Below are positions 3,271 through 64,000 of a stretch of 64,000 nt of DNA, piece by piece (the stretch's first letter is position 1; each line of letters starts with the position of its first letter). Made by a program: the position numbers and the translations under genes. The DNA lies in contig JBHGNT010000005.1 in the NCBI GenBank assembly GCA_043228905.1, positions 10,664,001 through 10,728,000 on the forward strand, written 5' to 3'. This DNA is from Azolla caroliniana (Eukaryota; Plantae; Polypodiophyta). Under the pieces are notes generated by a model. That model saw only the letters and a list, made by a program, of their open reading frames with translations. It ran no database searches and had not been told where the DNA came from.

Positions 3271-3703
3271 TGTCAGGAATAGTACTAAAGCAAAGATGGA
3301 ATTAGTACTAAGAAGAGTAGTACTATTAGTACTAAGAGGACGGGACTGCGTAAGATTCCCGAGAGAGGAAGTGAGAAGAGGAGAGAGAGAGAGATAGCGA
3401 GGATGAGAGAGAGAGAAGAATGATGACAACAACTAATATATTATGTGAAAAGATAAGTACAAAGCGGCTGAGAGGCTTAAGACTGGCGTTGAACCAATTT
3501 GGTTCAACATAATGCCTAGTGCCTGTCAGGAATAATCCTGAAACTTCTAGAATGTTCCAGAGAGATCTGGAATATACATTACTTTCTTATAATAAAATAT
3601 AAATGAAAATAATATTTTATGAATTATAATAGATGGTGTGATGGTTAAGAGCTCGACCCATATACCATAAGGTCATGGGTTCGAGTCTTGCCATATCATG
3701 ATA
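3271..3703 (-). repeat. 5' LTR of element A
   Basis: Ends TGACA followed by GTTTGAACCAATT, as in D; starts TATCATGATA (D: TGTCATGATA). Confidence 0.75.
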
Positions 3704-4817
3704 CTTACTAGCTTCTGGAATACCGAAACCTGATTAACGACATTTTTGTTTTGAAACATAATGCCAATCTTCTCCCAGAGCTCATGAGCCTTGCTCTGTT
3801 CATTGAAGTTGTTGTACAGGCTCATGTCGATGAAGCACCGTATGTACGCCGTTGTCTTCATGTGCATCACCTCCCATATCGCGGCGTTGATCTTGTCCGA
3901 TCTCTTGTCCCCGAACTGAACCGGCAACCAAAGATCTTTAACCACGAGCATGTCCCTCATCTTCGACTTCCACAGCGAATAGTTGGAGCCGGTGAGCTTG
4001 AACATACCTCCCAACGAATCGTCCATTTTCTGTGTCGTGTCGCTCTGATACCACTTGTCGGGAACTAAACGTCCCCTATGCGCAACGCTCGGCCACAACC
4101 AAGCTTCGAATCATACACAACAAATCAGGAATGAATGCACGACACAGTGAAGAGAAGAGTACACAGGATGTTTACCTGGAAAGCCCAAACTAGGGAAAAA
4201 ACCACGGAAGCCCACAAGCTGCAAACTATCACTATGTTACAGTGTACAACAGTAAAGCACCGAGGCAACAACCTCGAGCTTTCTATCTTCGCCACAGGCG
4301 GCGGTTACAACAGAGGCAACGACCTCTTCCTCTCTCTCTCTCTCTCTGTACACAGTTACGCGCTCTGATCTTGCACAAACAAGAATAACAACTCTCTAAA
4401 ATTTTGCCCTAAGTCATATTTATACTAATATGACTTTTTGGCTATTTACAAATATAGCCACGATGGACTCTCAGAAACATATTTACGAATATGTCTCTTC
4501 ATCCGGTGAGCACTCCTCACTGGGTCTGCACCATCTGGCTCTCCGTAGCCGGGTACTCCTCATCCGGTTCTCACCGGGTCTGCACCATCCGGCTCTCCAA
4601 AACCGGGTACTCCTCATCTGGTTCTCACCGGGTCTGCACCATCCGGCTCTCCGAAGCCAGGTACTCCTCATCTGGTTCTCACCGGGTCTGCACCATCCGG
4701 CTCTCCGAAGCCGGGTACTCCTCATCCGGTTCTCACCTTGGCCTATCGGCCTCGGACGAGTTTGCTCATCAGCACTGTTCTTCTCCCTTCCCATCCGGAG
4801 GGACCTGTCTCCCAACA
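3704..4817 (-). mobile_element. Ty1/Copia element B: 5' LTR 4056-4817, tRNA-iMet PBS 4042-4053, gag N-terminus 3704-4026
   Basis: TGTTGGGA...CGACA LTR resembling the LTR of E; PBS TGGTATCAGAGC; gag LTGSNYSLWKSKMRDML. Confidence 0.88.
4500..4737. repeat. About 4 copies of a 54-bp tandem repeat in the U3 of the B LTR
   Basis: Unit CATCCGGTTCTCACCGGGTCTGCACCATCCGGCTCTCCGAAGCCGGGTACTCCT. Confidence 0.85.
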
Positions 4818-7800
4818 GTCTGCTCGTGCGGCCTTTTCCAGCTCCCTTGCTGTCACGGTGTTGGCGCTTCTTCTGCTGCCATTTCTTCCAGTTGGCCTTC
4901 GGTTGATTCGGCATCTCCAAATCAAACACCCGAGCTGAATCGGGTGCTTCCAATTCGTCTCCGCTTTTGTCTGAATTGGTTGTCTCCAATTCGTCCTCAA
5001 TCTAGGCCTTCTCGCCCTTCTTGGCTTCATCTCCCCCATGCTGGGCTGGCTCTGGCTCTTTCGTTTAGTTGTTGCCCTCTTGTCCGCTTCCGGACTCTTC
5101 AGCGGATCCGCCTTCGGCTTCTTCAGCCAACACTAAATCGAATTTGTCATCTGATTTGATGTCGTGGTCACTTCCGCTCCTTTCCTTCTCCTTTCTGTGG
5201 TCTTGCGCGACTTGTCACTCCCGCTGCTTTCCTGATCCTGTCCGTGGTCTTACGGAACTTTTCTGCCCCTCAAGTTCGGCACGTTGAGGTGCCGCAACCC
5301 AAGCGCACCCAAGAATTGTTGCAACTTGTTTAGACCAAGCGGCTTGGTGAAGATGTCGGCGTTCTGCCGATCTGTCAGAACATACTGAAGTTCGACCTCA
5401 CCAGAGAGGACACACTCACGGACAAAGTGGTAGTGCACCTCAATGTGCTTAGTCTGGGTGTGAAAGACGTGGTTCTTTGCAAGTTGGATGTTGTTGAGGT
5501 TGTCGAAGTAGATCGTCGTTGGACCGCACACCTCCACCCGCAGATCCTCAAGTAGTCACTTCAGCCATATGGCTTCGCACGTTGCGACAGCCGCTCCTCG
5601 ATACTTGGCCTCTATGCTCGGTAGTGCAACTGTCGCCTACTTCTTGCTACTCCATGTGATCACGGCGCTCCCAAGGGAGAACGAGAATCCGGATGTGGAT
5701 CGGGGATCGCGGGCATTTTCGGCGCAATTGGCATCTGTATAGCCGACTAGTTGGGCGGCAGTACCAGTTCGATATAGTAGCCCCCGGTCCTTAGTGCCAC
5801 TGACGTACCTAAGTACGTGTTGCACGCACTAAAGGTGCTCCTCGGTTGGCCACGCCATGAACTGAGTAATCAAGTCGACCGGGTAACTGAGGTCTCGCAG
5901 AGTGATAGTCAAGTAGATGAGGCTTTCACAGTTCGGTCCAAAGAAGTTGAGACAGACTTATAGTCTACCATCCCGAACTTGAAGAGCATACTAAACACGT
6001 AATGTTGTTGGCTGATCAGTATGCCTTCGGGGGTTTGGATCACTTCAATCCCGAGAAAGTAATGAAGGTCCCCTAGGTCCTTCATATCAAATGATGCCAC
6101 AAACTTGAGCTTTACGCGGTCAATTTCACCTAGGTCGACATCAGCAATGACCAAGTCATCAACATGAAGTAAAATACTAACAGGCCCAAGTCGAAATTTC
6201 CGGACGAACAATGAAGAGTCCAATTTGGACGTCGCAAATCCCATCTGACACAATCGTTGCGTGATCTTCGCGTTCCCACATGCGGGGATTGCTTTAGTCC
6301 GTAAAGGAACTTCTTTAACCGGCATACCGCCGAAGTGTTCGTTCTGGAGTGAAATCCGGGGGTTGTACCATGTACACTTGTTCCTCAAGCTCGCCTTGAA
6401 GGAACGCATTCTTTACATCCATCTGATGTAAGTGCCACCCCTTCACCGCAACTACCGCAAGCAAAACACGGGTTGTCGTCATCTTCGCAACTGGTGCAAA
6501 CGTCTCATCGTAATCGATGTCGTGTTGCTGCACATAGCCTTTTGCTACTAACCAGGCCTTGTATTGGTTGACTGAGTCGTCGGTCTTGTACTTGACCTTG
6601 TACACCCACCTGCATCCAATCGGCTTTACAACCTTGGGGGCATCAACCAGGTCCCAGGTTTCATTCTCCGCAAGTGCGTTCATCTCTTCCTCCGTGCCGG
6701 CACGCCAATTTGCGTCCTTTGCCGCTTCTGCGTAGCTCTCTGGCTCAGGCACTTCCGCTACACGTGTCATGTACGCATAGTGATGCACCATGTACTCGTT
6801 GTATCCGAACTGCATAACAAGGTTCTTCTGGCAGGTAGATCGATGTAATTTCCCATTAGCCGATGTTGAGGCCGTTATGGCCGACGTGGACTTCGCTCTT
6901 GAAGGCCCGTCATCGCTCTTCTCAGAGTCGGATTAACGTCAATCCGACTACCAAGCCATTGCCCCCTATTTTTGTATCGCGCAACGATATCCTGCACATT
7001 TTCCCATGTATTGGTGAGGCCACTCTTAGTAGTGGTGTCCTCTAGGAGCATTCCAAGATCTTTCCGGTCCCGGACATCCACGGCTCGTCAGAACATAAGC
7101 ACTTTGTCCAGTGCGAGGATAGCTTGATCTCTCGCGAACCGACTTTCGAATGCCGAAAACACATCGAGGACCTTCAACCCCTTGTTTGGTGTTTCAACCC
7201 AATCTTCGAATCCTCTACGTGTTGCCTTGGAGGAGTCCTTGATGGCGAACGTGGTCTTTAGCGCTTCTTTAAATGCTTCCCACGTCGGATTTTGTTGTCG
7301 TATCCCGTGAATACTCCCTTGAAGCCCATCCGTAGCCACCTGATTGAAGGATGTCACTTGCAATCCTTCCGATATGCCACATCGTAGCATTTCTGCCTTA
7401 TAATCCCGCAAATATCGTGACACATCCTTCCTGTTGAATTGCCCGTTCCGTTGCATGAGCCACTCTACTACCGCCGCAATCTCCGACATCGCGCGTTGTT
7501 CTTGTAGCATCCGCTCGAACATCGTCATCATGTTGTTAGTTTCCGGTTGTTGATTCTCCATCTCCTTGCCACTCGTCTTCACGTCGGGTTCACCACTTGT
7601 GTCGTGCCTTTCGGCGCCGGATCGTTTGCGTGAGTCGGGTGGGAACCGTTGGGGTTTTGGACTAGAAGAAAGAAGAATATGAGATAATGTTAGTTAACAA
7701 AATATTGCAAGATGGAGATATGAAACTCGTGAATCCCACGAGTATAGTGTATTAATTGATACTTAGATTGTAAGAGAGAATTAGATGGCAAAATCGTGAA

Positions 7801-10800
7801 TCCCACGAATATTTTGTATTAATCAACCCTTATAAAAAATCAACAATCATATACATCTTTCTCTCTTCCTTATATAGTGATGGAAGAGTCTAAGTTTATC
7901 ACATGCAAGCATCATGCTTTTTCTAACTTTAGTTTTCATGCACACTACATGTGCATGATTAGCTATCTATCACATCTTTTCTTTTAACTCTAGTGTGTAT
8001 GCATGAATAACTTTTTCTATCATGCTTATCTAGAATATTTACATGGGATAAAGTTTAGTATAACATTAAAACTCATAATATGCTAGTACAGTGGTAAGGC
8101 TTAAAATCGTTAACATGGAGGTACAGGGTTCAAATTCTGCCCTATGCATGTAACAATATTTTTAGTATTTTCTTTTATTTATTTATGCGTACTACAATCA
8201 GATATCTTTTTTACATATTTCACGTAGTGTGCGAATTACACTATGATAATGTCCAGCTTCCTTTGCTTCTCCTTCGGCATATGCACATAAGCGATGCTAC
8301 CGAAAACCCTCAAGTGTCGTAGATTCCACTTCCTTCCGAAATATAGCTCATGTGCCGACATTTTTTCTCTGATCTGATTCTGGATGTAGACCGCGGTTCG
8401 GACCGCTTCAGCCCAATAGAACTTGGGCATGGTCTTTTCTTCTAGCATTGCCTGCGCCACTTCCACAACCAACCGATTCTTCCTTTCGGCTACATTGTTT
8501 TGCTATGGCGTATACCTGCAACTGAATTCGCGCCGAATTCCCATTTGTTGCAGATAACTATTGAATTGGTGGGAAAAGTACTCTTTTCCGCCATCCGACG
8601 CAGGCACTTGATCTTCCTCCATGTTTCCCTTTTGACAAGATTTTTGAGGTTCCGGAAACAGTCGAAGACTTCACTCTTCTTTTCTATGAGGTAGATCCAT
8701 TTGTGTTGGGTGTAGTCGTCGATGAAAGACACGAAATATCGACTCCTGCCAAGAATCACATTCTATGTCGGTCCCCATACATCTGAATGTATCAAGTCGA
8801 TCTTATTTCGGCTCTGATTACGCTCATTGGGGAAAGGAAGTTGGTGTTTCTTTCCTAGCTGGCAGGCTTCACAAATTTGGGCCTTTAGACCACTGAATTT
8901 CGGCAATCCGAACACAACTTGTTTTGAGTGCAGGTCCGGAAGCCTTTGGTAGTTAACGTGGCCTATCCGCTTATGCCACAAGTCGATATCCGACTCGACT
9001 TTTTGCCCTTTCGCGAACATGGCAGTGCCTACTTCATTGGTGTCGAGGATGAACATCCTCCCATCTCTGCGCCCTTGCGCAATAACTTGGCCTTCTTCCT
9101 CGATGAAGCACCCGAGATGCGTGAACTGGACTTGCATCCCCTGGTTGACTATCTATCCCACCGACACCAGATTCTTCATAATTGTTGGGACGTGTAACAT
9201 GCTCATTAGTTTCCCTTTTTGCTCGACGTGGCTGAGGGGAACTTCACCGACATATACGATCAGATCCGGAGTGTCGTCTCTTGTTGCGACTGCCCCCGGT
9301 TGTTCTGGTTTTTCCAGATATGAGAACCACTCTTTATGGCTCGTCATATGGTTTGACACTCCGGAGTCAACATACCACAAATAGTCTGATTTCGGGGTGG
9401 TCTTCTTCATCGAGTTCGCTTCATGTCTTGTCACGAAGGCTGTCCCCTTTTCGACTTTTTCGGATCCTTCGGCATAGTGCGTCCGCTGCCAATTTCCTTG
9501 TTTGGTCCATCCGGATCAGGATCTGGTTTTCTCTGAATCGATGCGCTTCTTCCAGCACTCGCTTTCCTTGTGACCTTTCTTGCCACAATAGCAGCATTCT
9601 GAGGCGTGTTTCCCTTGTCGGGTCTCGTCGCCTCCTCGACTCCCCCTACTTCTGGAGGGTCCGGAATTGCTGTCGGCATCACCACGATGCCTTCTTCCTT
9701 TCTCCCATCGACCGCCTCCATTGCACGCCGACTCGCCTTGTCCACCACAACTACGGGGCCAATTTCCCTCCGTGTACATCATCTTGTTGTCGGCGTGCGT
9801 ATTCGTCGACACACCCGCATGATTCTCCTCTACAAGGAGCATTGACTGCAAGTCGAAAAACGATGGTGTATTCTCCCTTGTACAAATAGTAGTTCGGAAT
9901 GCCATGAACTTCGATGCCAATCCTCCGAGGCAGATCTGCACCATTTCACCCTCCTCAATGTTCACATCAATGGAGGCGAGGGAGTCGCAAATATCCTTTA
10001 TCTTGGAGGTGTAGTCAGCTACCGTCATGTCGCGTTGACACACATTGCTCAACTCCTGTCGGAGTTGGAGCTTCCTAGTTGTGGTGCTTGCATCGAAAAT
10101 CTTTTTCAGATTTCCCCAAGCATCCTTCGGTGTTCTTGCATCCCAAATGTAACTCAAGAGTTGTTCTCTCACACAGGGCGCGAAGCAGTAGGGAACTCTG
10201 CTCGCCGATTGTTCCCAGGCCGGGAAGTCTCTGTGTGTCGATTCAGGTGTTGCATCATTCGCTCCATCAACATAGCTCCAATATCCATGTCCAAGCAGGT
10301 ACAGGTGCATCTTGTACGACCAAGATGCATAGTTACTTCTTTCGAGCCTCTCAGTTGGAAGCGAACTATCCATACCACTATCCTTTTTTTCCTTTCTGTT
10401 CTTCACCGAGATTAGGTTTTTTTGTTTCAAGCTGAAGTCGGTTGTAGAGGTTCTCAACCCTCGCGCTCTAATACCATGTGAAATGTTACGTGCGGAAGCT
10501 ATACGAAACACAGAATACCGACAGAGAAAAAACAGGTTTAATGGAGAGCTTAAGTCACAATGTACGCGGGAGAGACAGAGAGGGAAAAAAACACCGAAAA
10601 ATTAAATTCGAATAATGTGTAAACTCTGTACATAGGATGTCCTCAGAGAGCACTTTTATACAAGTCCATACAGATTGACAGAAGTATTGACACGTACTTC
10701 AATGCTCATAACTGAGCTCCTACACTAACTCCCAAATATATTCCCTCGTGGAATATCTGTTCAACGACCTCCCAGTTTCCGCACCGATCCGGCCTCTTGT

Positions 10801-13231: not shown

Positions 13232-13235
<4 letters not shown>

Positions 13236-13266: not shown

Positions 13267-13268
<2 letters not shown>

Positions 13269-13582: not shown

Positions 13583-14369
13583 TGTCGTGAAGAATGTGCT
13601 TCACGATATAAAAATGAGCTTAAATGTTGTATTTAATAATATTTGAGAGACTTGAACCCACATCCTTATATACGAAGTACAATGTACATACCACTAGGCT
13701 AGGCTATTTATTTGTAAAAGTGTGTAATAAATGTGCTTCATGATATAAGAATGAAGCTATATATTGTATTAAGTAAAATTGAGAGACTTGAACTCTCAAC
13801 CTTGTATGCCAAACACAAAGTATACACCACTAAGCTAGGTTAGTTATTTTAGAATGCATTTTCATCATTATACTTATCCCATATCTATTTTCATACATGG
13901 GAGCTCAAGTGAGCATGATGGCTACCATGCATCACGTGCAATACATGTGCGCCAAATGGCGATCATGCATTACATGTAACTCATGCATTGCATGCATGCC
14001 ATGTTCCCATACATTACCATATGCATGGCAACACTTATATAAAGAGGGGCAAGGAAAACAAGAGATAATCCAGAGAGAGTGAGAAAATAATATAATTAAG
14101 TAAAGAAGACTAGCTCATTGGGTGGAGAACCTCTCGTTTCGAAGTTGAGGTCATGGGTTCAAATCAAGGGTCGATAGAGAATGTGTTTAGTTTGCGATCA
14201 AGGATTGTAAAGTTGGTAAAATATTATACTTTTAATATACATTGAATGTTTATATCATATACTCTTGTTCCTTGAATCATACTTTGTCTCAATCTTCTTT
14301 CTAGAATCATACTTTGTCTCAATCTTCTTTCTTGAATCATACATTGTCTCTATCTTTTATCTATGCTCG

Positions 14370-14400
<31 letters not shown>

Positions 14401-14537
14401 TTACTCGTAACTCTTCTTCTTACTATCCTTAACCATTCTATCATCACCATACAAGCCTTATTAAAAGTTAAGTTTCTTCAACTCCCCTTAACCTTAGTCC
14501 CTGCGACTTCGCCGCACGAACCACAACTACCCCGACA
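13583..14537 (+). repeat. Isolated Gypsy-type LTR with three tRNA-like A/B-box modules
   Basis: TGTCGTGAAG...CCGACA termini, same 5' decamer as the LTR at 61883-62981; purine-rich tract upstream; no matching TSD. Confidence 0.6.
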
Positions 14538-26452: not shown

Positions 26453-27007
26453 AGGCGCAGAAGCACAGAAGAGCGATCCGACGCACAGAGCACACACAGC
26501 GCGATCCCGAACAACAGGCTGCAGAAGAAGAATTTGAAACAATGGTACTGTCGGAAGAGGCACGCCAATGGATGAGGGAGAACGGGTTAAAAGGATTGCT
26601 GCGGATCGCCGATGCTCCACCACACGCAGAACCAGAGCAGGCGGCAGCATCGATCGACATATTAGAAGTCACGGAAGGAGCGGTGCAGGCGCTCACGGGG
26701 ATAAAAGCAGGAGGACTTCAAACAATCGAAAACCCTTCTGTCATGATAACAGTCACATCATGCATCGAAAGGATCATGACACTCACATTATGACTCGAAA
26801 GGATTTGAACCCACGACCTTGTTGTACACATGTCCAATCCTTAACCATTGTATTAATATTCTTATATGTATAGTCTCTAGAATATGAAATCTAATATCAT
26901 AGGAATATGTTGGGATTTTCGGTCCCTCCGGATGGGATGTCCGGAGATGAATGACGGCAAGCCCGGTTGCGGTTACGGATCCGGAGAATGAAGAGTACCC
27001 GGCATGA

Positions 27008-32632: not shown

Positions 32633-32640
32633 TATAAATA
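32633..32640 (+). promoter_or_regulatory. TATA box of the D LTR
   Basis: TATAAATA about 25 nt upstream of the sequence complementary to the PBS. Confidence 0.7.
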
Positions 32641-32803: not shown

Positions 32804-32877
32804 TTTTCCTTTCATCTCTTCGTCTTCCACAAACCCTAACAAGTTCTCTTCTTCCTTCTCCTCTCCCCTCATAAGCT

Positions 32878-34002
32878 ATGGAGTCCGTGAGCAAACAAGA
32901 ATACATGCGTGTTCTTTCTGAGCTCGACATGCTCACGAATAAATTTGTGGCATTAGAGCATGAGAATCAAAGGCTACTTGGAGATCTACAGCACGTGAGC
33001 GCCGAAAAAGCTCAACAATATGAAGAGTTATCACAGCGGGTTCATCAACTTGAGGCGACTATATTGTCATTACGAGAGCAAGCGTCGGGGGCTCAGAACT
33101 CCCCTAGAGAGCCAAAGATCAGCCTCCCTGCCAAGTTTGATGGTACAAGGTCTTTATTTCGAGGCTTTTTGAATCAAGTTCATTTAGTTATTCAGCTACA
33201 TCCCAATCGGTATCCAACTGATGCTGCTCGTGTGGGATTAGTGGGAACTTTGCTATGCGGTACAGCGTTAGCATGGTTCGCACCACTTCTCGAGAAGAAA
33301 TCACCATTGCTGGAGGATTTCGAGGCCTTTGTTAAAGAGTTTCAAGCTAGTTTCGGAGACACCAACAGCACTAGGACAGCGATAAACAAGATTCGAAGGC
33401 TCCGACAAGGAGATCGTCCCGCGTCGTCTTATGCAGCCGATTTCCGTCTCTTGGCATGCGATATCCCTTGGGATGAGGCAGCTTTAATGGAACAATTCCG
33501 TCAAGGTTTGAGAAATGATGTCAAAGATCTTCTTCTTACTTTCCTTGAAGATCCGAAGTCACTTACAGAAGCCATTAGTCGAGCTGTGCGATGTGATAAT
33601 CGCCTATTTGAGAGACGTTCTGAGTGCCAACAAATGTTACGCCGCCAACCTGAACAGACTTACGCTTCCGTAGTCGCAACGCCTCCACAAGTTTCTAGAC
33701 CCATTACAAGGGATGGCCCAACTCCGATGGAAATAGAGTCAACACAACGTCGTGGGCCGTTATCAGATGCTGAGAAGCAACGATGTCGAGCGCATCACCT
33801 CCGCCTGTATTGTGGTGGTCCAGGACATATAGCTGTAAATTGTCCACATAAACCTAGGCGTCAAGTATACCAAGTAAGTGCCCATGAAAACCCTACATCG
33901 AGTTCTATTGTTACTTCTAATAACATAAATAAGCCTCATAGTCCATGTCATGAGAATAGATTCGATGTCTTGAGTCAATTAGAGGATGTGTTAAACGAGT
34001 AA
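32878..34002 (+). CDS. gag: Gag of chromovirus D (PEG10/RTL1-like capsid)
   Basis: PAKFDG, LRQG and PTPMEIE motifs; knuckle RLYCGGPGHIAVNC with the first Cys mutated. Confidence 0.93.
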   Translation: MESVSKQEYMRVLSELDMLTNKFVALEHENQRLLGDLQHVSAEKAQQYEELSQRVHQLEATILSLREQASGAQNSPREPKISLPAKFDGTRSLFRGFLNQVHLVIQLHPNRYPTDAARVGLVGTLLCGTALAWFAPLLEKKSPLLEDFEAFVKEFQASFGDTNSTRTAINKIRRLRQGDRPASSYAADFRLLACDIPWDEAALMEQFRQGLRNDVKDLLLTFLEDPKSLTEAISRAVRCDNRLFERRSECQQMLRRQPEQTYASVVATPPQVSRPITRDGPTPMEIESTQRRGPLSDAEKQRCRAHHLRLYCGGPGHIAVNCPHKPRRQVYQVSAHENPTSSSIVTSNNINKPHSPCHENRFDVLSQLEDVLNE

Positions 34003-37000
34003 GTCCGGCCAAAATAGGAGCCATTTGGCTGGACCATCCTAGCTATGTAGAGTTAGTTCCTAGTCGTGGTTCCATTTCATCAAATCAAGTGAGTCGAGTT
34101 TTTTCAGCACAAGTCGAGCTTACCACATCTACATGTCATCGAGTCCTAGCCTCTGCCCTTCTAGATTCTGGAGCCAACTCTTGTTTCATGGATCGTGAAT
34201 TTGCCTTGTCACAAAACATCCTCTTGAATAAGCTTCCCAACCCAGTAGCCGTAGGAGTCATCGATGGACGTCCCATAGCATCAGGAGATATTGTCGAGGA
34301 GTCCGAGCCAATTAGGATAGTTCTTGTCAATTTGGCAAGCCTAATCTCTTTCAATATTATTCGTAGTCCGGACCACCCAATAGTTCTAGGTCTCCCCTGG
34401 TTTGAACTCCATAACCCGAAGATTGATTGGATGAAAAGAACAATTGAGGAGACTCGGGAAAAAAGCACAAATCCCGCATCCCTCTCTCCTACATGTGCTA
34501 ATAGATCCCCGGAGTTATCGCCCATCTCTTTACGACAGTTGCGGGAGGAAGGGGGGAACGAGGCCATGTTCGTCTTCGCAATAGTAGCAACTCCATCATC
34601 CACTTCACGTGACGCGGATATTAAACTACCAGAGAAATACAAGGAGTTTTCAGATGTCTTTGATAAGGTGAAGGCCAATACATTACCGGAGCATCGGCCA
34701 TACGACTGCCCTATTGACTTACAACCAGGGAAAGAACCTCCATGGGGCCCAATTTATAATCTCTCCCCTGTAGAGCTAGAGACTTTGCGGGAATATATTG
34801 ATGAGAATCTGGCAAACGGATTCATTCGGCATTCTAGATCCCCTGCTGGTGCACCTATCTTCTTCGTTAAGAAGAAGAATGGGACTCTTCGGTTGGTCGT
34901 GGATTATCGAGGGCTAAACAAAGTGACTATCCGAAATAGATATGCTCTACCATTAATCCCGAATCTTTTGGAACGTCTCAGTGGTGCAAAATATTTCACG
35001 AAGTTGGACCTTCGCGGAGCATATAATCTAGTTCGGATTCGCCCGGGGGATGAATGGAAGACAGCTTTCCGCACTCGCTATGGACATTTTGAGTATACAG
35101 TGATGCCATTTGGTCTCACGAATGCACCTGCTGTTTTCCAACATATGGCGAACGATATTTTTCGAGACTTTCTTGATATCTTCACTATAGTTTACCTAGA
35201 TGATATTTTAATCTACTCAAAGACCCAAGAGGAGCATGATGCACATGTTCGTCAAGTACTGTGCCGACTCCGAGAATATGGTCTCTACGCAAAATTAGAA
35301 AAGTGTAGTTTCGGCCAGAATCAAGTGGAATTTTTGGGGTATGTTGTATCGTCAAATGGTATTGCTATGGACCCCATGAAGGTACAGGCAATTTTAGAGT
35401 GGCAAACGCCCCTTTCAGTGCGTGATGTGCAATGTTTTCTCGGGTTTGCAAATTTTTATCGAAAATTTATTAAAGATTATTCCAAGGTTGTGCTTCCGCT
35501 TACTCAGCTCACACATAAAGATCAACCATTTATATGGAGTTCAGATGCATCCGAGGCATTCGAAAGCTTAAAACGAGCATTTACAACGGCACCTATCTTA
35601 GCACATGTCGACCCAACAAAACGCTTCATCCTCGAAGCCGATGCATCCGATTTTGCACTAGGGAGTGTCCTCTCGCAGACTGGAGATGATGGACAACTAC
35701 ACCCTGTCGCCTTTCATTCACGAAAGTTTGAAGCTGCAGAGATCAACTACGAGATCCATGACAAAGAGCTTCTTGCAATCGTGGATTCGTTTCAACAATG
35801 GCGACATTTCCTAGAAGGTTCTTCTCAGCAGATCATTGTCTACAATGATCATAAGAACCTGACTTATTTCCAAAATGCTCGAGTCTTGAGTCGGCGACAA
35901 GCCCGGTGGGCGCAATTTTTGACTCACTTCGACTTTATCATCATATATCGCCCTGGGATGCAGCAAGGCAAAGCAGATGCTCTTTCTCGGCGCTCTTATA
36001 TGGAACTTCGTCCAGGGGAACCTGCTTTTGAGCATCAAAAACAAATCCTTTTGGGTCCTAATCGATTACGATTAATGGTAGTTAACACCATAACAGCTCT
36101 TGAAAATTCCACTCTTCTTGATTCCATTCGAGATCATATGGCCACTGATGATTTCGTCAAGGATGTTTTGGATCATATCGTCCCGGATCGTGCTTCTTGC
36201 TCACAGTCGAAAAATCCTCGTAATGACTATTGTCAGTTCTATTGGCATGATGGTTTTCTATTTCGACAAAATTTATTGTATGTTCCTGATGGTCCCCCAC
36301 GGCTACAAGTTTTGCAACATTGCCATGACTCACCAATGGCTGGTCATTTTGGAGTTCACAAGACTCTAGAATTAATTTCTCGACGCTATTGGTGGCCTCG
36401 CCTTCGTCATTTTGTTGAGGAGTATGTTCGGAGTTGTGATATATGTTGTCGATCAAAGAATCCTCGTCACCGACCCTATGGCTTACTACCACCACTTCCC
36501 ATTCCGGAAACACCTTGGAAGTCTATATCCTTGGACTTCATTACTGATCTCCCAGTTTCAAAAGGTTTTGATGCAATTCTCACAGTGGTTGATCGATTTA
36601 CCAAAATGGCACATTTCTTGCCATGTACAAAGTCGATTACTAGTCAAGAGACGGCTGATCTCGTTATGCGGGAGGTATTTAAGCATCATGGTCTGCCAGA
36701 TGATATTATTAGTGATCGTGGTCCACAATTCATCTCAAAGTTTCGGAAGCACCTGTTCAAACTTCTCCACATTTCAGTTAAGCTTTCGTCGGGCTATCAT
36801 CCTGAAACAAATGGCCAAACAGAGCGTACCAACCAGACATTGGAACAATATCTTCGTTGTTTCATCAACTATCAACAAGATGATTGGGTTGCATTTTTGC
36901 ACTTGGCGGAATTCGCTTACAACAACTCAGCCCATTCTTCTACAGGATATTCCCCATTTTTCGCAAATACGGGCTGTCATCCTCGATGGACGATGAACGC

Positions 37001-37463
37001 GCATCCAGAAGTTCCTACCAACCCTGCTGCCGAGGATCGTCTTAGTCGCCTCCAAGAAATTCAAGCTAACATTCTCCACAATTTGCACGATGCTCAATTT
37101 ACACACAAGAGGCTTGCCGATCGTCATCGTCTAGACTCCTCAAAAAAGTTCCGCATTGGGGATCATGTATGGCTTCTCCAACACAACATCAAGACCACTC
37201 GACCTTGCAGTAAATTGGATTACCAACGTTTTGGCCCTTACATGATCACTGGTAAGATAAGTGATGTTGCATTTCGTCTTGACCTCCCTCCGCACATGCA
37301 TCTTCATCCGGTGTTTCATGTATCCCTTTTGGAACCTTATACTACAAGTTCAATTCCGGGCCGTCTTACGACACCCCCACCACCTGTCGAGTTCTTGGAC
37401 GGGCCTGAATTTGAAGTTGCTGCCGTTCTCGATTCTAAAATCGTGCGCAACAAGTTGTATTAG
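33990..37463 (+). CDS. pol: Pol of D (PR-RT-RH-INT-chromodomain) in the -1 frame; stop inside the chromodomain
   Basis: LLDSGA, YLDD, DASD, HHCC, SLDFI/SDRG/NGQTE motifs, GPY and FEVAAVLD..LY*LVDWLGY..RTWEP. Confidence 0.93.
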   Translation, partial: VKRVSPAKIGAIWLDHPSYVELVPSRGSISSNQVSRVFSAQVELTTSTCHRVLASALLDSGANSCFMDREFALSQNILLNKLPNPVAVGVIDGRPIASGDIVEESEPIRIVLVNLASLISFNIIRSPDHPIVLGLPWFELHNPKIDWMKRTIEETREKSTNPASLSPTCANRSPELSPISLRQLREEGGNEAMFVFAIVATPSSTSRDADIKLPEKYKEFSDVFDKVKANTLPEHRPYDCPIDLQPGKEPPWGPIYNLSPVELETLREYIDENLANGFIRHSRSPAGAPIFFVKKKNGTLRLVVDYRGLNKVTIRNRYALPLIPNLLERLSGAKYFTKLDLRGAYNLVRIRPGDEWKTAFRTRYGHFEYTVMPFGLTNAPAVFQHMANDIFRDFLDIFTIVYLDDILIYSKTQEEHDAHVRQVLCRLREYGLYAKLEKCSFGQNQVEFLGYVVSSNGIAMDPMKVQAILEWQTPLSVRDVQCFLGFANFYRKFIKDYSKVVLPLTQLTHKDQPFIWSSDASEAFESLKRAFTTAPILAHVDPTKRFILEADASDFALGSVLSQTGDDGQLHPVAFHSRKFEAAEINYEIHDKELLAIVDSFQQWRHFLEGSSQQIIVYNDHKNLTYFQNARVLSRRQARWAQFLTHFDFIIIYRPGMQQGKADALSRRSYMELRPGEPAFEHQKQILLGPNRLRLMVVNTITALENSTLLDSIRDHMATDDFVKDVLDHIVPDRASCSQSKNPRNDYCQFYWHDGFLFRQNLLYVPDGPPRLQVLQHCHDSPMAGHFGVHKTLELISRRYWWPRLRHFVEEYVRSCDICCRSKNPRHRPYGLLPPLPIPETPWKSISLDFITDLPVSKGFDAILTVVDRFTKMAHFLPCTKSITSQETADLVMREVFKHHGLPDDIISDRGPQFISKFRKHLFKLLHISVKLSSGYHPETNGQTERTNQTLEQYLRCFINYQQDDWVAFLHLAEFAYNNSAHSSTGYSPFFANTGCHPRWTMNAHPEVPTNPAAEDRLSRLQEIQANILHNLHDAQFTHKRLADRHRLDSSKKFRIGDHVWLLQHNIKTTRPCSKLDYQRFGPYMITGKISDVAFRLDLPPHMHLHPVFHVSLLEPYTTSSIPGRLTTPPPPVEFLDGPEFEVAAVLDSKIVRNKLY

Positions 37464-40400
37464 TTGGTCGATTGGCTAGGCTATACCCCCAATGATCGAA
37501 CTTGGGAACCTGCCACAAATCTTTCCAATGCTGCAGAACTCGTCAATGCATTTCATCGCCAATATCCTTGTAAACCAGGTCCTAATACAAACCCTATGAC
37601 CCGTGAGACGTGTCGTCGAAGAAGGGGGATAGTGTCATGATAACAGTCACATCATGCATCGAAAGGATCATGACACTCACATTATGACTCGAAAGGATTT
37701 GAACCCACGACCTTGTTGTACACATGTCAAATCCTTAACCATTGTATTAATATTCTTATATGTATAGTCTCTAGAATATGAAATCTAATATCATAGGAAT
37801 ATTCTATATTACTCTACATTCTAGAATGACCTAGAATATTCTAGAGTGTTCTATACCACTAGAACCTTCTAGAATACTCTAGAGATCTTCTAGATTACTC
37901 TACATTCTAGGATAACCTAGAATATTCTAGAGAGTTCTCTATTACTTATAAATAGGGATCTACCACCCATCCCAAACCTAAATTGGTTCAACGCCATTTT
38001 GTAGCCTACTCTTTGTAATCCATTTTACGCTTCAATATAATAATTCTCTTTCAATTATCTCTCTATCTCTTTTTCTCTCTCTTTCTCTCTCTCAGTCTTG
38101 ACACCTTCAAGTGAAATCCTATTCGAATATTTCGAGGAGTACTCTATCAGCAGCAAGGTGTACCGAACGCAGGGCGGAGAGAACCTGCTGTTCGGAGAAG
38201 TGGCCCGCGCCATGATGGAATACGGATTCGTGAATCCCCGTCCCCCGGCCATAGCCAAGTACCGGGCAGCGTTCTTAATAGCAGCGTACGAAGGATTACA
38301 AATAGACTGGCTCCATTTCATAACCGAAGGATTGAAGGAGGCCATCAAAAATCTTGTGGAAGGAAAAAAGCCATGGGCCGGGATAGCACAATGGCTAACG
38401 GTGTTAGTCCCACCGGTGCTCCCCATCCCACAAAAGAAAAGAGGTCGGCAGGAGACGACGCCGAAAAAGGTCACAAAGCGCCGACAGATCTTGGAGAAAC
38501 ACACCCCCGGATGGACCCAGCAAGAAGCAGAATAGCAGGGGGAAGGACCATCCCGACAGCAACAGGAACCGGCAACAAAGGCAAAACCGGCAGGTAAAGG
38601 CAAAGGGAAATCAGCCGAGGAGGAACCGGTAGCGCGCAAACCAATCCATATAACGCTGCGACGGCCGGAACCGGAACCAGAGGACTTTATACAAAAGGCC
38701 CGTCTGGTAACCGCACCGGAGGAGGAAGCTGAAACAGAAGACTCATCCGAACCACTGGTAAGACTCCCAGCAAGACAAGGTCGGGAGAAACGGGCGAAAG
38801 GACCGGCTCCACCAGTGGACAAAACTCAGTAGAGGGCGCAAGGACCACCTCCGGAAACAGCACCGGAACCCGTACCGAGGGAAGCAGCACCGACACCGGT
38901 TGTGCCGGACTTCAGAGAACCGGTCATCCCAGAGAAGAAGAATGAACAAGCGCCGGAGCCAGAGAAAAGGCCGGAAAAACAGCCTGAGTTAAGTGAGCAA
39001 GGCCACCCCGACACAGGAAGAACGAAGCCACAATGGTTGAGATGGCTTTCGGAGCAGTTATCGGGAGTAGCGGACCAGTTAGAGAAAGAAGAAACGTGTA
39101 GGCAACAGCTGACGCATACAACAACGCAGGAGTTGGTCGCGCTCCGAACACAAATCGAGGAAATGCAAGGGGAGCTGTTGCAGGCAAGGGAAGGAATTCA
39201 ACAAGCACAAGTTGTCACCGAGCCGGTCGGGACAACAAGGAGGCAACCAGAACCGGTAGCCTTGCAAACCGGCCCTGAGACCGAAAAAATAATAGAAACC
39301 TTGCGAGAGGAGTTAAAAGCTCAGGAGGCATTAAGGGAAAGAGAAAGGGAGCAGCAGAAAGCGGTGGAGGACGACAGACGAAAAATGGAAGAAGGCCTCC
39401 GGAAAGGTCGAGCCGCTAATGACCGACTGCAAGAAGAAAAAGAGAAGCTGCAAAAGGAGAAGGACCGACTACGTCGACATGCCGAGCAAGAGATAGAACG
39501 ACTGCAGGAAGAACTCCGACAACAGAAGGACCGGGACGATCGGTTAAGAGCTCAGGCAAACCGACGCCTGAAGCAGAAGACGGAGGACTTCGACCGTCTC
39601 TACCGAGATCACAAGCAGGCCGAGTCGGACAACAAGAAACGGGCAGCAGACTACGACCGGCAAATAGAGAAGCTGAAAGAACAGCTCAAAGAGACCCGAT
39701 TAGACTTGGCTAAGGCAATGGATGAGGTCAGTGCCAACAAGGAAGCATTGTCGGCGGAAATAGCCCAAGCGACGGTGAGAAGGAAGGAATTAGAGGCGCT
39801 AAGGCGGGAAAAGCTGGACCTGACCAAGATCAGGAATGAAGAAAAGGAAAAATCGACCTTCACGATCAGCAAACTGCAAAGTACCTATGAAAAGCAGAAA
39901 GCGGATTACGAGGCCCAGGCTCAGATAATGGCCGACATTATAAAACGGGCAAGGAAGGAAAAGCAGGAAGCTTATGCGCATGCTAAGGCAGGGGTTGACC
40001 GGATCAAGCTCATCATGTCAGGATGGAGTACCCGAGCTCAGGCAAGCATCAATGAAAGTACGGAAAAGCTATGGAAGGAGTGGTCACAACAGGCAGCCGA
40101 GCTGCAGACACTCCGAGCGGATGCCGAGAATCGGAGGAAGACTGGTGACAAGTTCTACAAGATGGATGAGGAAAGTATCGTCGCCATTCGGGAAGAATTG
40201 TCGGAAGATTTCTACACTTTAGCGGAAGAACATCTCAAAGAAATCCGAGGGTTGGTAGAGAGGTTGGATGACGGGCAGCTCGCAACTCAGTTGGAGTTGG
40301 AGAGATACGAGCAGGACCGGTTACGATAGGAAGCTAAGGGAAGAACGACGCCAACCACTATTGGTGAGGGAACGCGACCGGCTGAAGTTGAACCAACCGA

Positions 40401-52542: not shown

Positions 52543-52696
52543 GCGTTCTGCTTCTTCTTTGTGCGTTTTGGCGCCTTTTTCGAGCATGCACACGTCGTGT
52601 ACCAATTTAGTATTAAGTAGCGTGGCGTCTCTTAAATGCCCACTACGTACCTTTTCGCGCCTTGCTTTCACACCCGTTCATACCTCGATTTTTAAT

Positions 52697-52697
<1 letters not shown>

Positions 52698-52739
<42 letters not shown>
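52698..52739 (-). repeat. A42 tract on the element sense strand between pol and ORF3
   Basis: Run of 42 T on the + strand. Confidence 0.9.
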
Positions 52740-52746
<7 letters not shown>

Positions 52747-52757
52747 GGTGTGTGACC

Positions 52758-58153: not shown

Positions 58154-59013
58154 GTTTAGATCTTATTTGTATGTCTAAACATAAGTAGTGATATAGTTTT
58201 AGAAGAATAGAAGAGTGAGGGCGTGGGTGGGGGTTAGGGGAGTGTAGCTTGTTGAAATTATCAAAAGTATTTAAACCTAATCAAAGTTTTTAGAATATAT
58301 TAAAGATCATTGGGATAACTTAAGTTATTAGACAACAATAACGTACTATTAAAACACCAATATAGAGTATTATTAAAACGGGACCACACGCTTGGATGAA
58401 CGAGAGTTGTTTAAACACACGCTTAAGCAAACACTTAAAAGAAAGATTATTATAAAAAATAAGAATAAAAATAAAAATAGAAAAGAGAGATTGAGATTAA
58501 AAAATGATTATGGTTAAGAAGGGATTATGATTAAGGGGGAAGGGGTTGCTAAACAAAGTACTTAAACGAATGTTTAAACAAATATTTAGATAAGAAAACA
58601 CTTGGGCAGACACTTAACGCAAGGTTAGGATTAAAAGAGAAGGGAGGGATTATGGTTAAAGAAAAGGGGTCATGGTTGAGAAGAGAATGATTATGATTAA
58701 GAGAGGAGAATACTTAAACAAATGTTTAAACAAAAAGTTAAACCTAAAAATGATTGAACAAGTACTTAAAAAAAAGGGGTTAAACAAGTAGTAATAAAAA
58801 TGTTTATTAAACAAGTACTTAATAGAAAATGATTAAATAAATGCTTAAAAACTTAAGACAAAAAAAAAAAAAAAAAAAAAAAAAAAAGATAAAAAAGTGA
58901 TTAAACAAGTACTTAATAAAAGTTTATTAAATAAGTACTTAAGAACTTAAGACAAAAAATTAGATAAGAGCAACACATAGAAGGAAAGAAAGTTTTACTA
59001 TCATAAGGCAACG

Positions 59014-59059
59014 ATCGGCAAATGCATTTCGCCTCGATGGAGGCTCTTCAGTGCCCGAT
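59014..59059 (-). ncRNA. Minimal type-I hammerhead ribozyme
   Basis: Minus strand reads AUCGGGCA-CUGAAGA-GCCUC(CAUC)GAGGC-GAAA-UGCA-UU^UGCCGAU: full core, stems I and II, palindromic stem III. Confidence 0.85.
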
Positions 59060-59221
59060 GTACAAATGATGAAAACTAAGCCTACTAGGTTGCTCTTTTT
59101 ATAGGGAGAGGGAGGAGAGTCCTTTGTATGTGGGACATACAAAAGTGTGTACAAAGGGAAGGTAAAAGAGTGTACACAAGACTTTAGGTGGGGGTTAAGA
59201 GGGGTGAGAGTACATAAAACA

Positions 59222-60960
59222 TTAGGTGGAGGGAAAGGATGCGTGTACTAGGTGGTTTCTTAGTTTTTTACCATTTAGCCAACACGTGAGAGGGGGTGTA
59301 AGGGAACTGTATTGTGGTTGTCCTAGAAGGGGTTTAAGTTTGTTTCTCACGAGCGCTCCGATTTGGAGTTTTTTGATACAAGGGGAGTATCGAAGCTTAA
59401 AAACAATGGGTGGAGGTTTTTTGTTGTTGGGTTGGTTAGAGAGTAGTTGGTTTCGTATGGAGTAGGGGACGGTCGAAAAACACTTGAGTAGGAACTTCGA
59501 TGGGTAGCCCCTAGCTCTTAGGCGGTCGTAGAACTTTTTGCGTAGTTCCATGTAGCCATTTTCCGAGCTCTCCCGAATAGCATACCGTTTTAGTTCGCCC
59601 GTGATGAAGCCCTTTTTGTGTGCTATGGGGTGCGAGGATTTCCACGGGAGGTACATGTAGGCATTGAGAGGTTTTTGGTGGCATGTGGTGTCGAGGATGC
59701 CGAATTCTTTAAAGTATGGGCCTTTGAAGAATACGACGTCCAGGATGGTGATCTCTTTAGGGGAGGTTGTTGATTCAATACGGATGTGTTGTTGTAGAGG
59801 CACGCCGTATTGGTGTAAGAAGGTGTGAAGTGTATCGGGGGAACCTTCCCAAACTCCTATGGCATCATCGATGTAGCGTTTGTAGTAGAGTAGTTGCGGT
59901 GTTTGGAAAGCTAGGTTGTCGTCCTCTAGCTGCGAAAGAAACAAGCAAGCGTAAACAACCGCAAAATTACTACCCATCGCGGTGCCTTTAATTTGTAACC
60001 AAAAAGCATTATTAAAGGAGAGAAAATTGTTTCTAAGTATTAGTTCGGCAACACTCATAATGATTTTGGTTTTGTGTGGTGGGAAATGATGTGAAATAGA
60101 TTTTTTAAAAAACAATAGACCTTCCGTGGTAGGTATACTGGGATATAGTGACACTACGTCAAAAGAAAACAACGTGCAAGTTTTGGGGAAGGTGTGGTGT
60201 GCTAGGTCCTTAACAAGTGTTAAGGAGTCTTTGAGGTGTTGTTTTTTAGACAATAAGACAGGATGTAGTAGATGGTGTAGCCATTTAGAGGCTCTTTCGA
60301 AAACATAATTGTTGTAGGCGCAAATAGGGCGTCCTACAACAATGGGCTTGTGGACTATGGGGATGATGTAGAAACGACATATCCTGAAACCATGTTTGGG
60401 TTTTTGAAGGAGGAATCTAATTTCCTCATTGGAGAGGTGGGGGGAAGCTTTCAGACATAGGTGTTCAAGTCGACTGTGGAGAGTTTCTAGGGGGGCGTCT
60501 TTGACGGGGGTGTAGGTGTTTTTGTCGTTGAGCTGTCTAAGGCATTCGTTAAGGTACCAATCCTTAGAGAGAATGCACGTGCCTAGATTTTTATCCGCGG
60601 GTTTAATAACTATGTCTTGATTTTTTTTGAGATTGCGTAGTGCAGTTCTAAAGTTCCTATGAGGGCGAGGTTGGATGGTGGGTGGGGAGGGGAGGGCAGA
60701 GGTGATAGATGTGATGGTTTGTGTGATTTCTGGCACGGCTGGGGGATTCCAACTGGGGTTCGGTATTCTAAATGGAGAGATAATGTTAGTAGAGTTTCTA
60801 AAGAAATATTTGAGGCGGTAAGTTCTATCCAAGGATACAACGGCATCTATCAATTGTTGTTTTCTAATAGGTTGGGGTGGGGGAATAAAGTCTAGACCTA
60901 AGCTTAGAAGTTTGAGTTGGGGTGGAGGAAGGTGGAAAGAGGAAAGGTTGTGCAATGAGT
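59222..60960 (-). CDS. Penelope-like reverse transcriptase, about 580 aa, open but lacking its own ATG
   Basis: NLS..LLSLGLDFIP; KPADKNLG; FYIIP.VHK..GRPI; SFDVVSLYPSIP; QIKGTAMGS; RYIDD; QKPLN.YMYLPW.SSHP; RGYP. No GIY-YIG domain. Confidence 0.92.
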
Positions 60961-61882
60961 TTAACCGGACAAGGCCTAACACAAGGTGTCACGGAGACAC
61001 TTCACCAAAGGGTGATTACGGCATAGGATTAAGATTCAACGATTACACCGACTTACATAGGTTACACAATTAGAATGCTTCGGTTAATTACACGCGTAAG
61101 ATATAACAGTAATTACAGAACGGAAACCAAGACAGAAGTATAAACAACATAAGCTCTATTAATTATCCGCTCTCATTACAATGGGGTCCGGGCCTTTAAA
61201 TAGGTTTCCGGCCCGTAGTACAAAACGGTGCTTCTCGCACCTATTCGGGATCCGTCCGGATCTGGAACGGCATACCGTTTCCAGTCCGTCCGTCCACACT
61301 ATGCTCATTTACAACCATATCTAATTAATTCCTTCACTCCGTATTTTGGACTCCTTGCCGGCCGGTAACATAACCGAGCATCTAGTCGTGCACACAAGAT
61401 GTGAGGCAGTACAATACTCGATTTCCTCCTTGCTCCCATACTGGGAAGTCTTCGTGTGCCGGCTCCGGCGCTACCTCGTTTGTTCCTTCCATGAAGCTCC
61501 AATATCCATGCCCCAACAGGTACTGGTGCATCTTGTATCACCAGGACGCGTCCTTGCTCCGATCGAGCTTCTCTGTTGGAAGTGAACTCGCCATTCCTCT
61601 ATCCATATCTTCTCTCTGTCTGTTGTTACCGGGTTCTAGGGTTCGTCTACGAAAGCAAGTGTCGACTGCAGAGGTTCTCAACCCTCGCACTCTAATACCA
61701 TGTGAATGTTAACTTGCGGAAGCATTAGACAGAACCGGCTCAGCCGAAGAGCAACAGAGAATAAGATGAAGGTTTAATGGAGAAGTTTAATACATAGACA
61801 GTATACGCGGGAGAGATAGGGAGAGCAAAACGTAAACGTAGATTCAAAATATCACTTTGAAAATTCTATGTACATAAAACGT

Positions 61883-64000
61883 TGTTGTGGCGTCGCTCGC
61901 CTAGAAGCGTAGCGTTGCGTAGACTGAAGACAACGTGAAAGTGAGGAAGGAATCGTTCAGATTTTGGACGAAAGAGACGAAAGAGTGGAAATAGATAAAT
62001 AGTGATCAACAAGATATGACAAGATAGGATGTAAAATGATAATTGAGGGAATGTAAGAAATTTATAATTATTTCATGAAAGAGTTCAAAATGGTTGCGAG
62101 CATCGTTGAACCGTCGAACTTTGTCTCACAAGGTAGTCGCTCTTCTCTTTCTTGATAGTAGACCACAATCTTCCCTTCTATCTTTCGACGACGATAAGAC
62201 TCGAACCTCCGCCTTTTCGTTGCGAGTTGAGCACCGCCGCCTCCAAGCTAGTTCTTCTCTTGTCTTTTGAAGATTGTATATAGATTTTACCTTCTCTCCC
62301 TCTTTCTCTATTATGATATCTCTTACAATATAATTTCGCTCAATTCCATACAATAATTCTATTCAATATGATTGTTTGATTCCTTGATGTCCTTGTGACT
62401 ATACTCCCTTCTCCTTTAATAGGAAGGGGATGGTTTTGCATGTGACCCATATGTCACACATGCAAAGAGGGCTCTTGCATGTGTGCTATATGGTGCACAT
62501 GTAGTACATTACATGGTTTAGACTATACAATGCTACTTCAAATAAAACAATACTTTTTTTTTTATACATATGATGAGTTTGGTTAAATGGTAGGTTTTGA
62601 GTGTCATAATGTGGAGGTTGTTGGTTCAAGTTTTCTCTCGCCCATGTAATACAATATATGATGCACATGTAGTACATTATATGGTTTAGGATTTAAACCA
62701 TACAATATTACTTCAAATAAAACAAGACAAATAGTTTTATACAAATTACAATTATAGGGTAAATGGTAAGGTTTCAGAGTCATAAGGTGGGTGTTATTGG
62801 TGCAAGTCCTCTCTTGTCCATGTAATATTTATTTATTTATTGCCTCTACATATAATGTATAATATTATCATAGGGTGTTTTTAATATTACCTTTATAAAA
62901 CATTATGAAGATATATTTTATTTTAGTTACATATTTATCTTTTTGTAGACTTTTAATGTGAAGCTTTCGTACTTCACGACATCCACCGCCTCTAGACCTA
63001 CACATCCTCCGGCATGTGCCACTATCTTCCATCGTCATGTTGATCTATTGGAGGAGGTTCTAGCTCAAACCTTTTCTTAAATACTTTTATCCTCTTTCCA
63101 GCTACCACATTTAGGATTAGTGTCCCATCCAATTCACTAAGTTTATAAGTAAAGTTATCATATACTTTTCTTAGTATGTAAGGCCCAAACCATCTTTCAA
63201 CGAACTTGCGGACAGTGCTATGTTCATTATCTAAATTGCTATCATACACAAGCAGCCAATCCCCTTCTTCTATCTTCTTATGTCGAATTCTGTGAGTTTT
63301 ATCAAAACAAATTTTATTCTTTAGTCGAGCCTCCTTCAATCATTGTGCTGCTAATTCTACATCTTCAGGCTGACGTTGTAATTGTTGAATTCTCAAAGCA
63401 AGCAATTCTTCTCTGCTTAGCTCTTCTCTCCATGGAATAGATGTCCATGACATAATTGATTCTTCTATTGGCATGATGGGCTTTTGGCCAAGTATTAGTT
63501 CAACTGGCATATATCCTCTTACCGAACTATCTGTTGTCCGATCTACCCATATTGCATAAGGTAGCATGCGTGGCCAATCTCTTAATCTACCTTTAAAACT
63601 TTTCATGATCGCCTTAACTATTGGGCTATGTCCTCTTTCCATCTTTCCATTGCCTTTTGGATTATAAGCAATTGTAAGTGATAACTTGACCCCTATCCGA
63701 CTGAAGAATTGTCTAGCTTCATCAAAATCAAGCTCTCCTTTATCTGCAATTACTTTACCAACACACCCATAACGACATATTACATCTTCTAACAAAAATT
63801 TACATACAACTTTATTTGTTTTTGTCGTAGTGGTCTTCCTTCTACTTGGTTTGTAAGGTCTTCTCTTGCTAGTACTAAATATCGCATTTGACCTTCCCCA
63901 AGTGGCATTGTCACTAGGTCGACCATCCATTTATAATGCATTAATGATGAATATGTTGGGTTTAGCTCATCTCGATACCGAATAGTCGAGTACCTCTAGC
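61883..64000 (-). mobile_element. 3' end of Gypsy element J (3' LTR 61883-62981; integrase 63022-63930), inserted in the 5' LTR of H
   Basis: LTR TGTCGTGAAG...CACAACA; purine-rich tract adjacent; integrase CRYG..IADKG..AYNPKGNG.ME..WFGPY. Confidence 0.82.

Follow-up and report, generated by a model that had tools for sequence, protein, structure and literature searches.

tRNA-type promoter boxes, mostly facing outward, in the long terminal repeats of two Gypsy lineages of Azolla caroliniana: a probable shared module and a candidate TFIIIC barrier

Introduction

Why should coding retrotransposons carry the internal promoter boxes of tRNA genes inside their long terminal repeats (LTRs), and carry most of them backwards? 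The question is raised by a stretch of 64 kb from Azolla caroliniana (GenBank assembly GCA_043228905.1, contig JBHGNT010000005.1, positions 10,664,001 to 10,728,000 of the forward strand; hereafter the window, with positions counted from its first letter), which is a nested cluster of LTR retrotransposons. An earlier inspection of its letters, here called the original prediction, had pointed to A/B-box pairs of the RNA polymerase III (Pol III) type in five different Gypsy-type LTRs and had proposed a shared, selected LTR module. We found that the modules are real and not a matter of chance and that they are probably a shared part of these LTRs kept by selection; as to their role, we lean, at a little under even chances, towards a chromatin barrier built on TFIIIC.

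Results and discussion

Identification of the A/B modules

The scan patterns were the textbook boxes, set in advance (A box TRGYNNARTGG, B box GGTTCRANNCC), a strict pair being allowed at most one mismatch per box with box starts 42-46 nt apart, and 30 dinucleotide block shuffles served as the control. Six strict pairs were found in the window, two of them being both LTRs of a single element (D), against none in each of the 30 shuffles, and at spacings of 30-41 or 47-60 the window held none, which bears out the tRNA-like spacing that had been claimed. When two mismatches were allowed in each box the window gave 13 pairs against 4.2 +/- 1.4 in the shuffles (maximum 7). All nine motifs of the original prediction are present, each at its place and on its strand, although its list needs two corrections: a tenth module, in sense orientation in element J, had been missed and was recovered by the box scan, and the module at 62756-62809 is degraded, having lost T8 and T55, and was not recovered. 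The modules, in the order of the window, are the following (PBS, primer-binding site):

3634..3688, plus strand: A/B module of element A, antisense; the B box lies some 25 nt inside the 5' end of the LTR
8084..8137, plus strand: A/B module of the Trp-PBS element (Trp element), antisense; T5 run 23 nt past the B box
13648..13701, minus strand: module S1 of the solo LTR S, antisense; first unit of a 136-bp tandem duplication
13784..13837, minus strand: module S2 of S, antisense; the most tRNA-like, with an Rfam tRNA score of 16.6 bits over positions 8-63 and a full T stem
14111..14166, plus strand: sense module in S; after the TATA, on the R/U5 side
26801..26855, minus strand: A/B module in the 5' LTR of element D, antisense
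37695..37749, minus strand: A/B module in the 3' LTR of element D, antisense; 15-pair hairpin in common with A
62197..62250, minus strand: sense module in element J; after a TATA-like box
62580..62633, plus strand: module J1 of element J, antisense; unit of a tandem duplication
62756..62809, plus strand: module J2 of element J, antisense; degraded, 11/13 core letters

An AGG at tRNA positions 44-46 is present in seven of the nine distinct modules, in agreement with the claim that a segment resembling the variable loop usually stands before the B box. It is found at 10 of the 207 B-like sites in the window, and eight of these ten are the modules. A combined box and AGG scan, for which the AGG criterion was added only once the modules had been seen, gave nine matches, all of them inside LTRs that we regard as Tcn1-like (A, D) or Phygy-like (the Trp element, S, J), compared with a mean of 0.3 and a maximum of 3 in 40 shuffles. 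All five Tcn1/Phygy-like LTR families in the window carry a module; neither scan found one in the copia LTRs or in three other gypsy-type or unassigned LTR families there. The five different Gypsy-type LTRs of the original prediction belong to two lineages and not to five.

Position and orientation

Eight copies are antisense and sit towards the 5' end of U3, upstream of the TATA box; the distance of their B boxes from the start of the LTR is 25-358 nt. Two are in sense orientation (14111 in S and 62197-62250 in J), both of them after the TATA. All motifs except that at 14111 had been described as antisense and as pointing out of the 5' end of the LTR; seven of the nine are beyond doubt antisense at the 5' edge of U3, and one more is degraded. 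Placement in U3 likewise holds for the antisense modules but not for 14111, which comes after the TATA (LTR position 453). In S and J the U3 module lies in a tandem duplication, and the 45 nt upstream of the modules are 67-91% AT.

Derivation from tRNA

The modules have kept the letters of the boxes and lost the tRNA fold. Taken together, the nine distinct modules keep 110 of the 117 letters of the box cores and 24 of the 27 of the AGG, whereas the acceptor, D, anticodon and outer T stems hold 50 Watson-Crick pairs out of 171, which is the chance level given by slid controls (36-56). Although it was the boxes that led to the modules, the list of LTRs was drawn up by lineage and five out of five were positive, so that such a bias is not the cause of this contrast. 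There was no excess of T-stem pairing (17/30; slides 8-18).

Rfam gave tRNA scores of 16.6 bits (S2) and 12.4 bits against a cut-off of 29, found no tRNA match for the D module or 14111, and returned only one chance match for the whole window. ARAGORN reported no tRNA gene; at lowered thresholds it gave 31 matches at 80%, two of which fall on modules, an uninformative result. Since scores lie under the cut-off and stems are at chance level, functional tRNA genes were rejected. An origin from 5S RNA, as in Cassandra, was also rejected because the boxes are of the tRNA type and the Rfam scans gave no 5S match.

The sequence between the boxes falls into the groups A, L056 (a related metagenomic locus) and D; Trp element, J1 and J2; S1 and S2; and three singles. 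The observation that the intervening sequence differs is thus valid between groups, whereas the spacers of A and D, and those of the Trp element and J, are homologous. None of the nine modules is followed by a short interspersed element (SINE) tail of at least eight A. No convincing target-site duplication (TSD) surrounds them either, the repeats of 7-11 nt seen at six of the nine being AT-rich, of low complexity or derived from the tandem units, and within the 64 kb of the window no free copy of a module was found. With unrelated spacer groups and neither tail nor TSD, a single recent SINE family was rejected. We infer that the modules originate from tRNA genes or from the tRNA-derived heads of SINEs, at least once per lineage.

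Conservation and selection

The LTRs of the Trp element, S and J have no mutual BLAST match at E<=0.05, and when the U3 regions of A and D are compared, most of what can still be aligned is the module (42 nt, 74%), accompanied by short repeats of the TCTAGA type. In family D, contigs from five organisms cover the module like the remaining LTR, at most 2% of them continuing into unlike sequence, contig depth not being equal to copy number here. Moreover, some loose contig ends show LTR starts nearer the B box, so that the flanks turn over around the module. The danger recognised at the outset, that the motifs are independent SINE insertions absent from most family members, does not agree with these data: tails and TSDs are lacking, the module is family-wide in D, and it is kept in LTRs that can no longer be aligned.

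A finer test asks whether the boxes vary less than their flanks, which had been named beforehand as a check. Between 37683 and 37775 family D has 25 sites with a variation of >=3%, namely 1 of 13 core sites and 24 of 80 others (p=0.08); at >=10% the counts are 0 of 13 and 18 of 80 (p=0.049), and at >=20% no core site and 13 others (p=0.12). In the close pairs S1/S2, J1/J2 and A/L056 the boxes differ at 12 of 66 positions and the remainder at 78 of 307 (p=0.27), these being single old copies in which decay after insertion blurs a comparison of box with flank. The check is thus positive for family D at one threshold and negative for the close pairs.

Taken over long distances the pattern supports selection, and the shallow data do not prove it. 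Position, persistence, and the survival of box letters as against stems favour a shared and selected LTR module, whereas the tests of box against flank are marginal or negative; on balance we consider that the module is probably shared and under selection, which would be purifying selection on the letters of the boxes.

Occurrence among relatives

A metagenome scan yielded at least 80 related loci at 39-57% identity, of which L056 carries a module of the A type and L014 one in which the A box is weak. In an integrase tree D is joined to L056 with support (100/99), as L014 is to L012 (100/96), a locus that has no module, which makes the module patchy at depth. Of 103 loci with an integrase match, the 74 that have at least 350 nt beyond pol were scanned and gave five weak matches at four mismatches and none at three or fewer; L056 and L014 belong to the 29 not scanned, and their LTRs were read separately. 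Genome contigs contributed 18 loci to the search for family DNA; the viral contigs contributed 10 distant chromoviruses, one repeat and a single putative pattern match (L110), and no further Phygy-like DNA was found in them.

The sister Tcn1 families L014 (4135-4462) and L012 (1850-2125) have their TATA/R region in common (83% over 54 nt), and of the two it is L014 alone in which a module and TCTAGA repeats resembling those of A and D occur. U3 blocks may therefore be swapped or lost as a unit. Seven loci of the collection (L092-L097 and L102) are contigs of chromovirus-type LTR retrotransposons deposited in bacterial records of metagenome-assembled genomes, and are likely eukaryotic contamination.

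This patchiness in the wider Tcn1 lineage is what would be expected if the modules were passengers, that is, tRNA copies or tRNA-derived SINE heads that were captured into U3 and have no function there. The tRNA register is clear, and SINE heads likewise keep their boxes and lose their stems; the close pairs show no excess conservation of the boxes, and core letters are broken in several copies, including L056. Kojima has proposed a SINE insertion as the origin of the LTR element Helenus (PMC10886601). However, passengers would require at least four captures at the same LTR end and in the same orientation, each without tail or TSD, or else one old capture of which the box letters have outlasted the whole surrounding LTR. 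In addition, in the contigs examined the D-type module was not seen outside its LTR context. We hold functionless capture to be unlikely.

A possible TFIIIC barrier

The role that we favour, tentatively and with its chances put just short of even, is that of a selected TFIIIC-binding site acting as a barrier that keeps the Pol II promoter of the element open. TFIIIC would bind the B box and TFIIIB would be placed in the AT-rich stretch on the LTR-internal side, with any Pol III moving outward from the LTR and not across the enhancer and TATA. The TFIIIC complex would then stand between the flanking heterochromatin and the enhancer/TATA region, and each new insertion would bring its own boundary, a relevant property for elements that land in repeat clusters such as this window. 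TFIIIC-dependent barriers at tRNA genes and at sites with a B box only are known to stop the spread of heterochromatin in yeast and mammals (PMC12409998).

Should TFIIIC bind, the module would be a novel means by which a retrotransposon remains active in heterochromatin. Being small and present in many copies, it would also allow a direct test of tRNA-type barriers in plants. A broader proposition, possible but somewhat more doubtful, is that two unrelated autonomous gypsy lineages of non-seed plants have independently fixed an outward-facing mimic of a tRNA gene and use TFIIIC as a portable chromatin barrier, a cis-encoded and protein-free form of anti-silencing that would leave thousands of Pol III sites scattered through the repeats.

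Several points weigh against the barrier. TFIIIC tolerates a box spacing of 32-93 bp (PMC12409998), so that the fixed spacing and the AGG need another reason, and a barrier has no obvious need for one orientation. The two sense modules and a hairpin common to A and D are not explained by it. Better conservation of the boxes reaches significance at one of the three family-D thresholds only, and does not do so in the close pairs. The related Tcn1 loci L012 and L013 have no module, and the A box of L014 is weak, which indicates that the module is dispensable in the wider lineage. Furthermore, the precedent comes from yeast and mammals and not from plants.

Some of these features would be accommodated if the module were a working Pol III promoter. 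Its product would be a short RNA antisense to U3, in the Tcn1 families a hairpin, by which the element is tuned or limited, or else one that runs out of the 3' LTR backwards into the pol end. The A box, the AGG and the spacing are kept jointly, beyond what a barrier with a B box only would need. A, L056 and D share a 15-pair stem in which the letters that follow the A box pair with the T arm/B box (3634-3688, 37695-37749 and, in L056, 890-944); it is 88% paired, with two compensatory pairs between A and D and six one-sided changes, all of them to G-U on the module strand, and the A module folds at z -4.9. The hairpin is nevertheless confined to two families, being absent from the Phygy-like modules and from L014, and 13 of 500 shuffles reach its score.

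T runs follow the modules at 7-256 nt, and at nine of the ten loci a run of at least four T lies within 7-108 nt; in A and D, however, the run that follows falls outside the LTR, so that with no terminator inside it the 3' end of the RNA would differ with each insertion. CAA at -10 to -3 is found in only three of nine modules; AT-rich and CAA elements upstream help plant tRNA genes, and they are weaker outside flowering lineages (PMC13578239). An antisense RNA as the reason for the module we place second, as an unlikely explanation.

Carrier elements and their lineages

The elements that carry the modules are these (RT stands for reverse transcriptase, RH for ribonuclease H and INT for integrase):

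3271..3703, minus strand: 5' LTR of element A, Tcn1-like chromovirus by its features; gag and RT downstream on the minus strand; 12-nt self-priming complement between PBS and R start
7598..8248, minus strand: 5' LTR of the Trp element, Phygy-like; PBS starts 2 nt after the LTR
13583..14537, plus strand: solo LTR S, Phygy-like; 4-bp NCGN-type flanks GCGT/ACGT
26739..26907, plus strand: 5' LTR of element D, first part; interrupted by a copia element at 26908-32482, remainder at 32488-32789
32875..37628, plus strand: gag and pol of element D; RT, RH, INT, SH3 and a chromodomain with a stop at 37461-37463
37633..38103, plus strand: 3' LTR of element D, 471 bp; TSD CCTTC; TATA at LTR position 315; R start near 348
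61883..62981, minus strand: 3' LTR of element J, Phygy-like; integrase upstream; right flank ACGT

By their features, and not by a tree with reference elements, A and D appear to be Tcn1-like chromoviruses. Element D measures about 5.8 kb excluding the copia insert, encodes gag-pol with a chromodomain (PF00385) past a stop, and has 471-bp LTRs and a 5-bp TSD; it is contained in sequencing runs labelled with five organisms and as leaf or plant metagenomes. In both A and D the sequence that follows the 5' LTR has 12 nt of complementarity to the start of R, an arrangement that constitutes a self-priming PBS. Self-priming, reported for 83% of Tcn1 elements (PMC6317226), is thereby shared by A and D, while the other Tcn1 characters, chromodomain and 5-bp TSD (PMC6317226, PMC2864245), are seen in D. 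The R start of D (37984-37994, plus strand) and that of A (about 3495-3485, minus strand) each hold a perfect sense B-box consensus with no A box before it.

The Trp element, S and J would fit Phygy, a placement again made from features and not from a tree with reference elements. An 18-nt PBS follows the LTR of the Trp element, presumably of the tRNA-Trp type; for S and J no PBS is in view. Of the 4-bp flanks, S shows both (GCGT/ACGT), J the right one (ACGT) and the Trp element the left one (ACAT). A Trp PBS has been described in 81% of Phygy elements (PMC6317226), and the likeness consists in this PBS in the Trp element and, possibly, in a 4-bp target of the NCGN type, for which S alone shows both flanks. 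The relatives of the J integrase have RT, RH and INT in gypsy order without the chromodomain PF00385 in 43 of 43 rows, and the named ones come from the liverwort Riccia; together with the lineages of the elements this points to a non-seed land plant. A, the Trp element and J adjoin coding remnants, and A runs off the window. The available parts of PMC6317226 and PMC2864245 describe no LTR-borne tRNA boxes, and for the SM-Tcn1 LTRs PMC2864245 names there only TATA and CAAT.

The manner of priming bears on a further explanation, by which the antisense module in U3 would make the genomic RNA complementary to the D and T arms of a tRNA, for use in priming or strand transfer. This single assumption would account for the orientation, the place in U3, the fixed spacing and the AGG, and it has a parallel in the bipartite PBS of Ty3, also a Ty3/gypsy element with tRNA-complementary sequence in U3, where the primer is bound through its T and D arms (PMC5371799). 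However, Ty3 pairs with its own primer, whereas A and D are self-primed and need no tRNA, and in the Trp element the T stem of the primer should, going by the PBS, be CACGT, while the module has TCTGC. The spacers match no common tRNA, and the sense modules would be unable to pair. Pairing with the primer as the main role was consequently rejected, and pairing with a tRNA in general we judge to be very improbable.

The copia element in the 5' LTR of D (26908-32482, TSD GAATA) is inserted 48 nt upstream of the A box and could suggest that the module is a landing pad, at which elements that target Pol III genes insert upstream and by which insertions are steered into repeats. This is one event among ten module copies, no other module having an upstream insertion; among the loose ends listed for family D, LTR starts do not pile up upstream of the A box, and a carrier pays for being a target. 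We find such a function scarcely probable at all. The copia element itself is young, with a frame of 1382 codons, and its LTR has an array of 27-bp repeats related to a 54-bp array in the copia LTR at 4516-4737.

Relation to known systems

A tRNA-like stretch is present in the U3-R region of HIV-1. Among plant elements, Cassandra had been put forward as the precedent; Helenus, with boxes of the tRNA type, is closer than Cassandra with its 5S type. In Cassandra too, Pol III promoter boxes are conserved in plant LTRs amid varying neighbouring letters (PMC10853983, PMC10886601), but these are of the 5S type (A, IE and C boxes), they have replaced the Pol II promoter and the element is non-autonomous (PMC10853983), whereas here tRNA-type boxes are added to a Pol II LTR.

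Helenus and TRIMp3 resemble the present case in having a tRNA-like sequence with conserved A and B boxes inside the LTR (PMC10886601). Helenus is, however, non-coding and 311-1263 bp long, whereas D encodes gag-pol and A, the Trp element and J stand next to coding remnants. The template RNA of Helenus has been proposed to come from its Pol III promoter (PMC10886601), whereas in the window the TATA is kept and the U3 boxes face outward. The sense modules meet a T4 after 65 and 108 nt and the U3 modules are antisense, so that neither kind is placed to make template RNA. The screen behind Helenus kept only elements shorter than 1000 bp, leaving long carriers outside it, and the same paper argues that autonomous elements must rely on Pol II (PMC10886601).

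The mode of action proposed here is that of the barriers at tRNA genes and at extra TFIIIC (ETC) sites, where TFIIIC-bound A/B or B boxes halt heterochromatin; those are fixed chromosomal loci of yeast and mammals (PMC12409998), whereas the module would be a predicted TFIIIC site on a mobile LTR. Our literature search, with subscription papers and repeat databases beyond its reach, gave no report of antisense tRNA-type boxes in the LTRs of autonomous plant gypsy elements. In the literature searched, the only LTRs described as bearing Pol III boxes are those of tiny non-coding elements, which use the boxes for making their own RNA; here they are kept backwards by coding elements of two lineages.

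Other features of the window

Two long frames without a Pfam match (38833-40329, plus strand, and 50557-52677, minus strand) lie in the 3' parts of the two non-chromovirus elements with LTRs at 22785/40834 and 50095/60961, respectively. A further open frame of 588 codons (59225-60988, minus strand) has no match in Pfam or PDB but contains motifs resembling those of reverse transcriptases, which we take to be Penelope-like. This frame lies within the LTR element at 50095-61370, the 410-bp LTRs of which are identical, beside AT-rich repeats and a long A/T tract.

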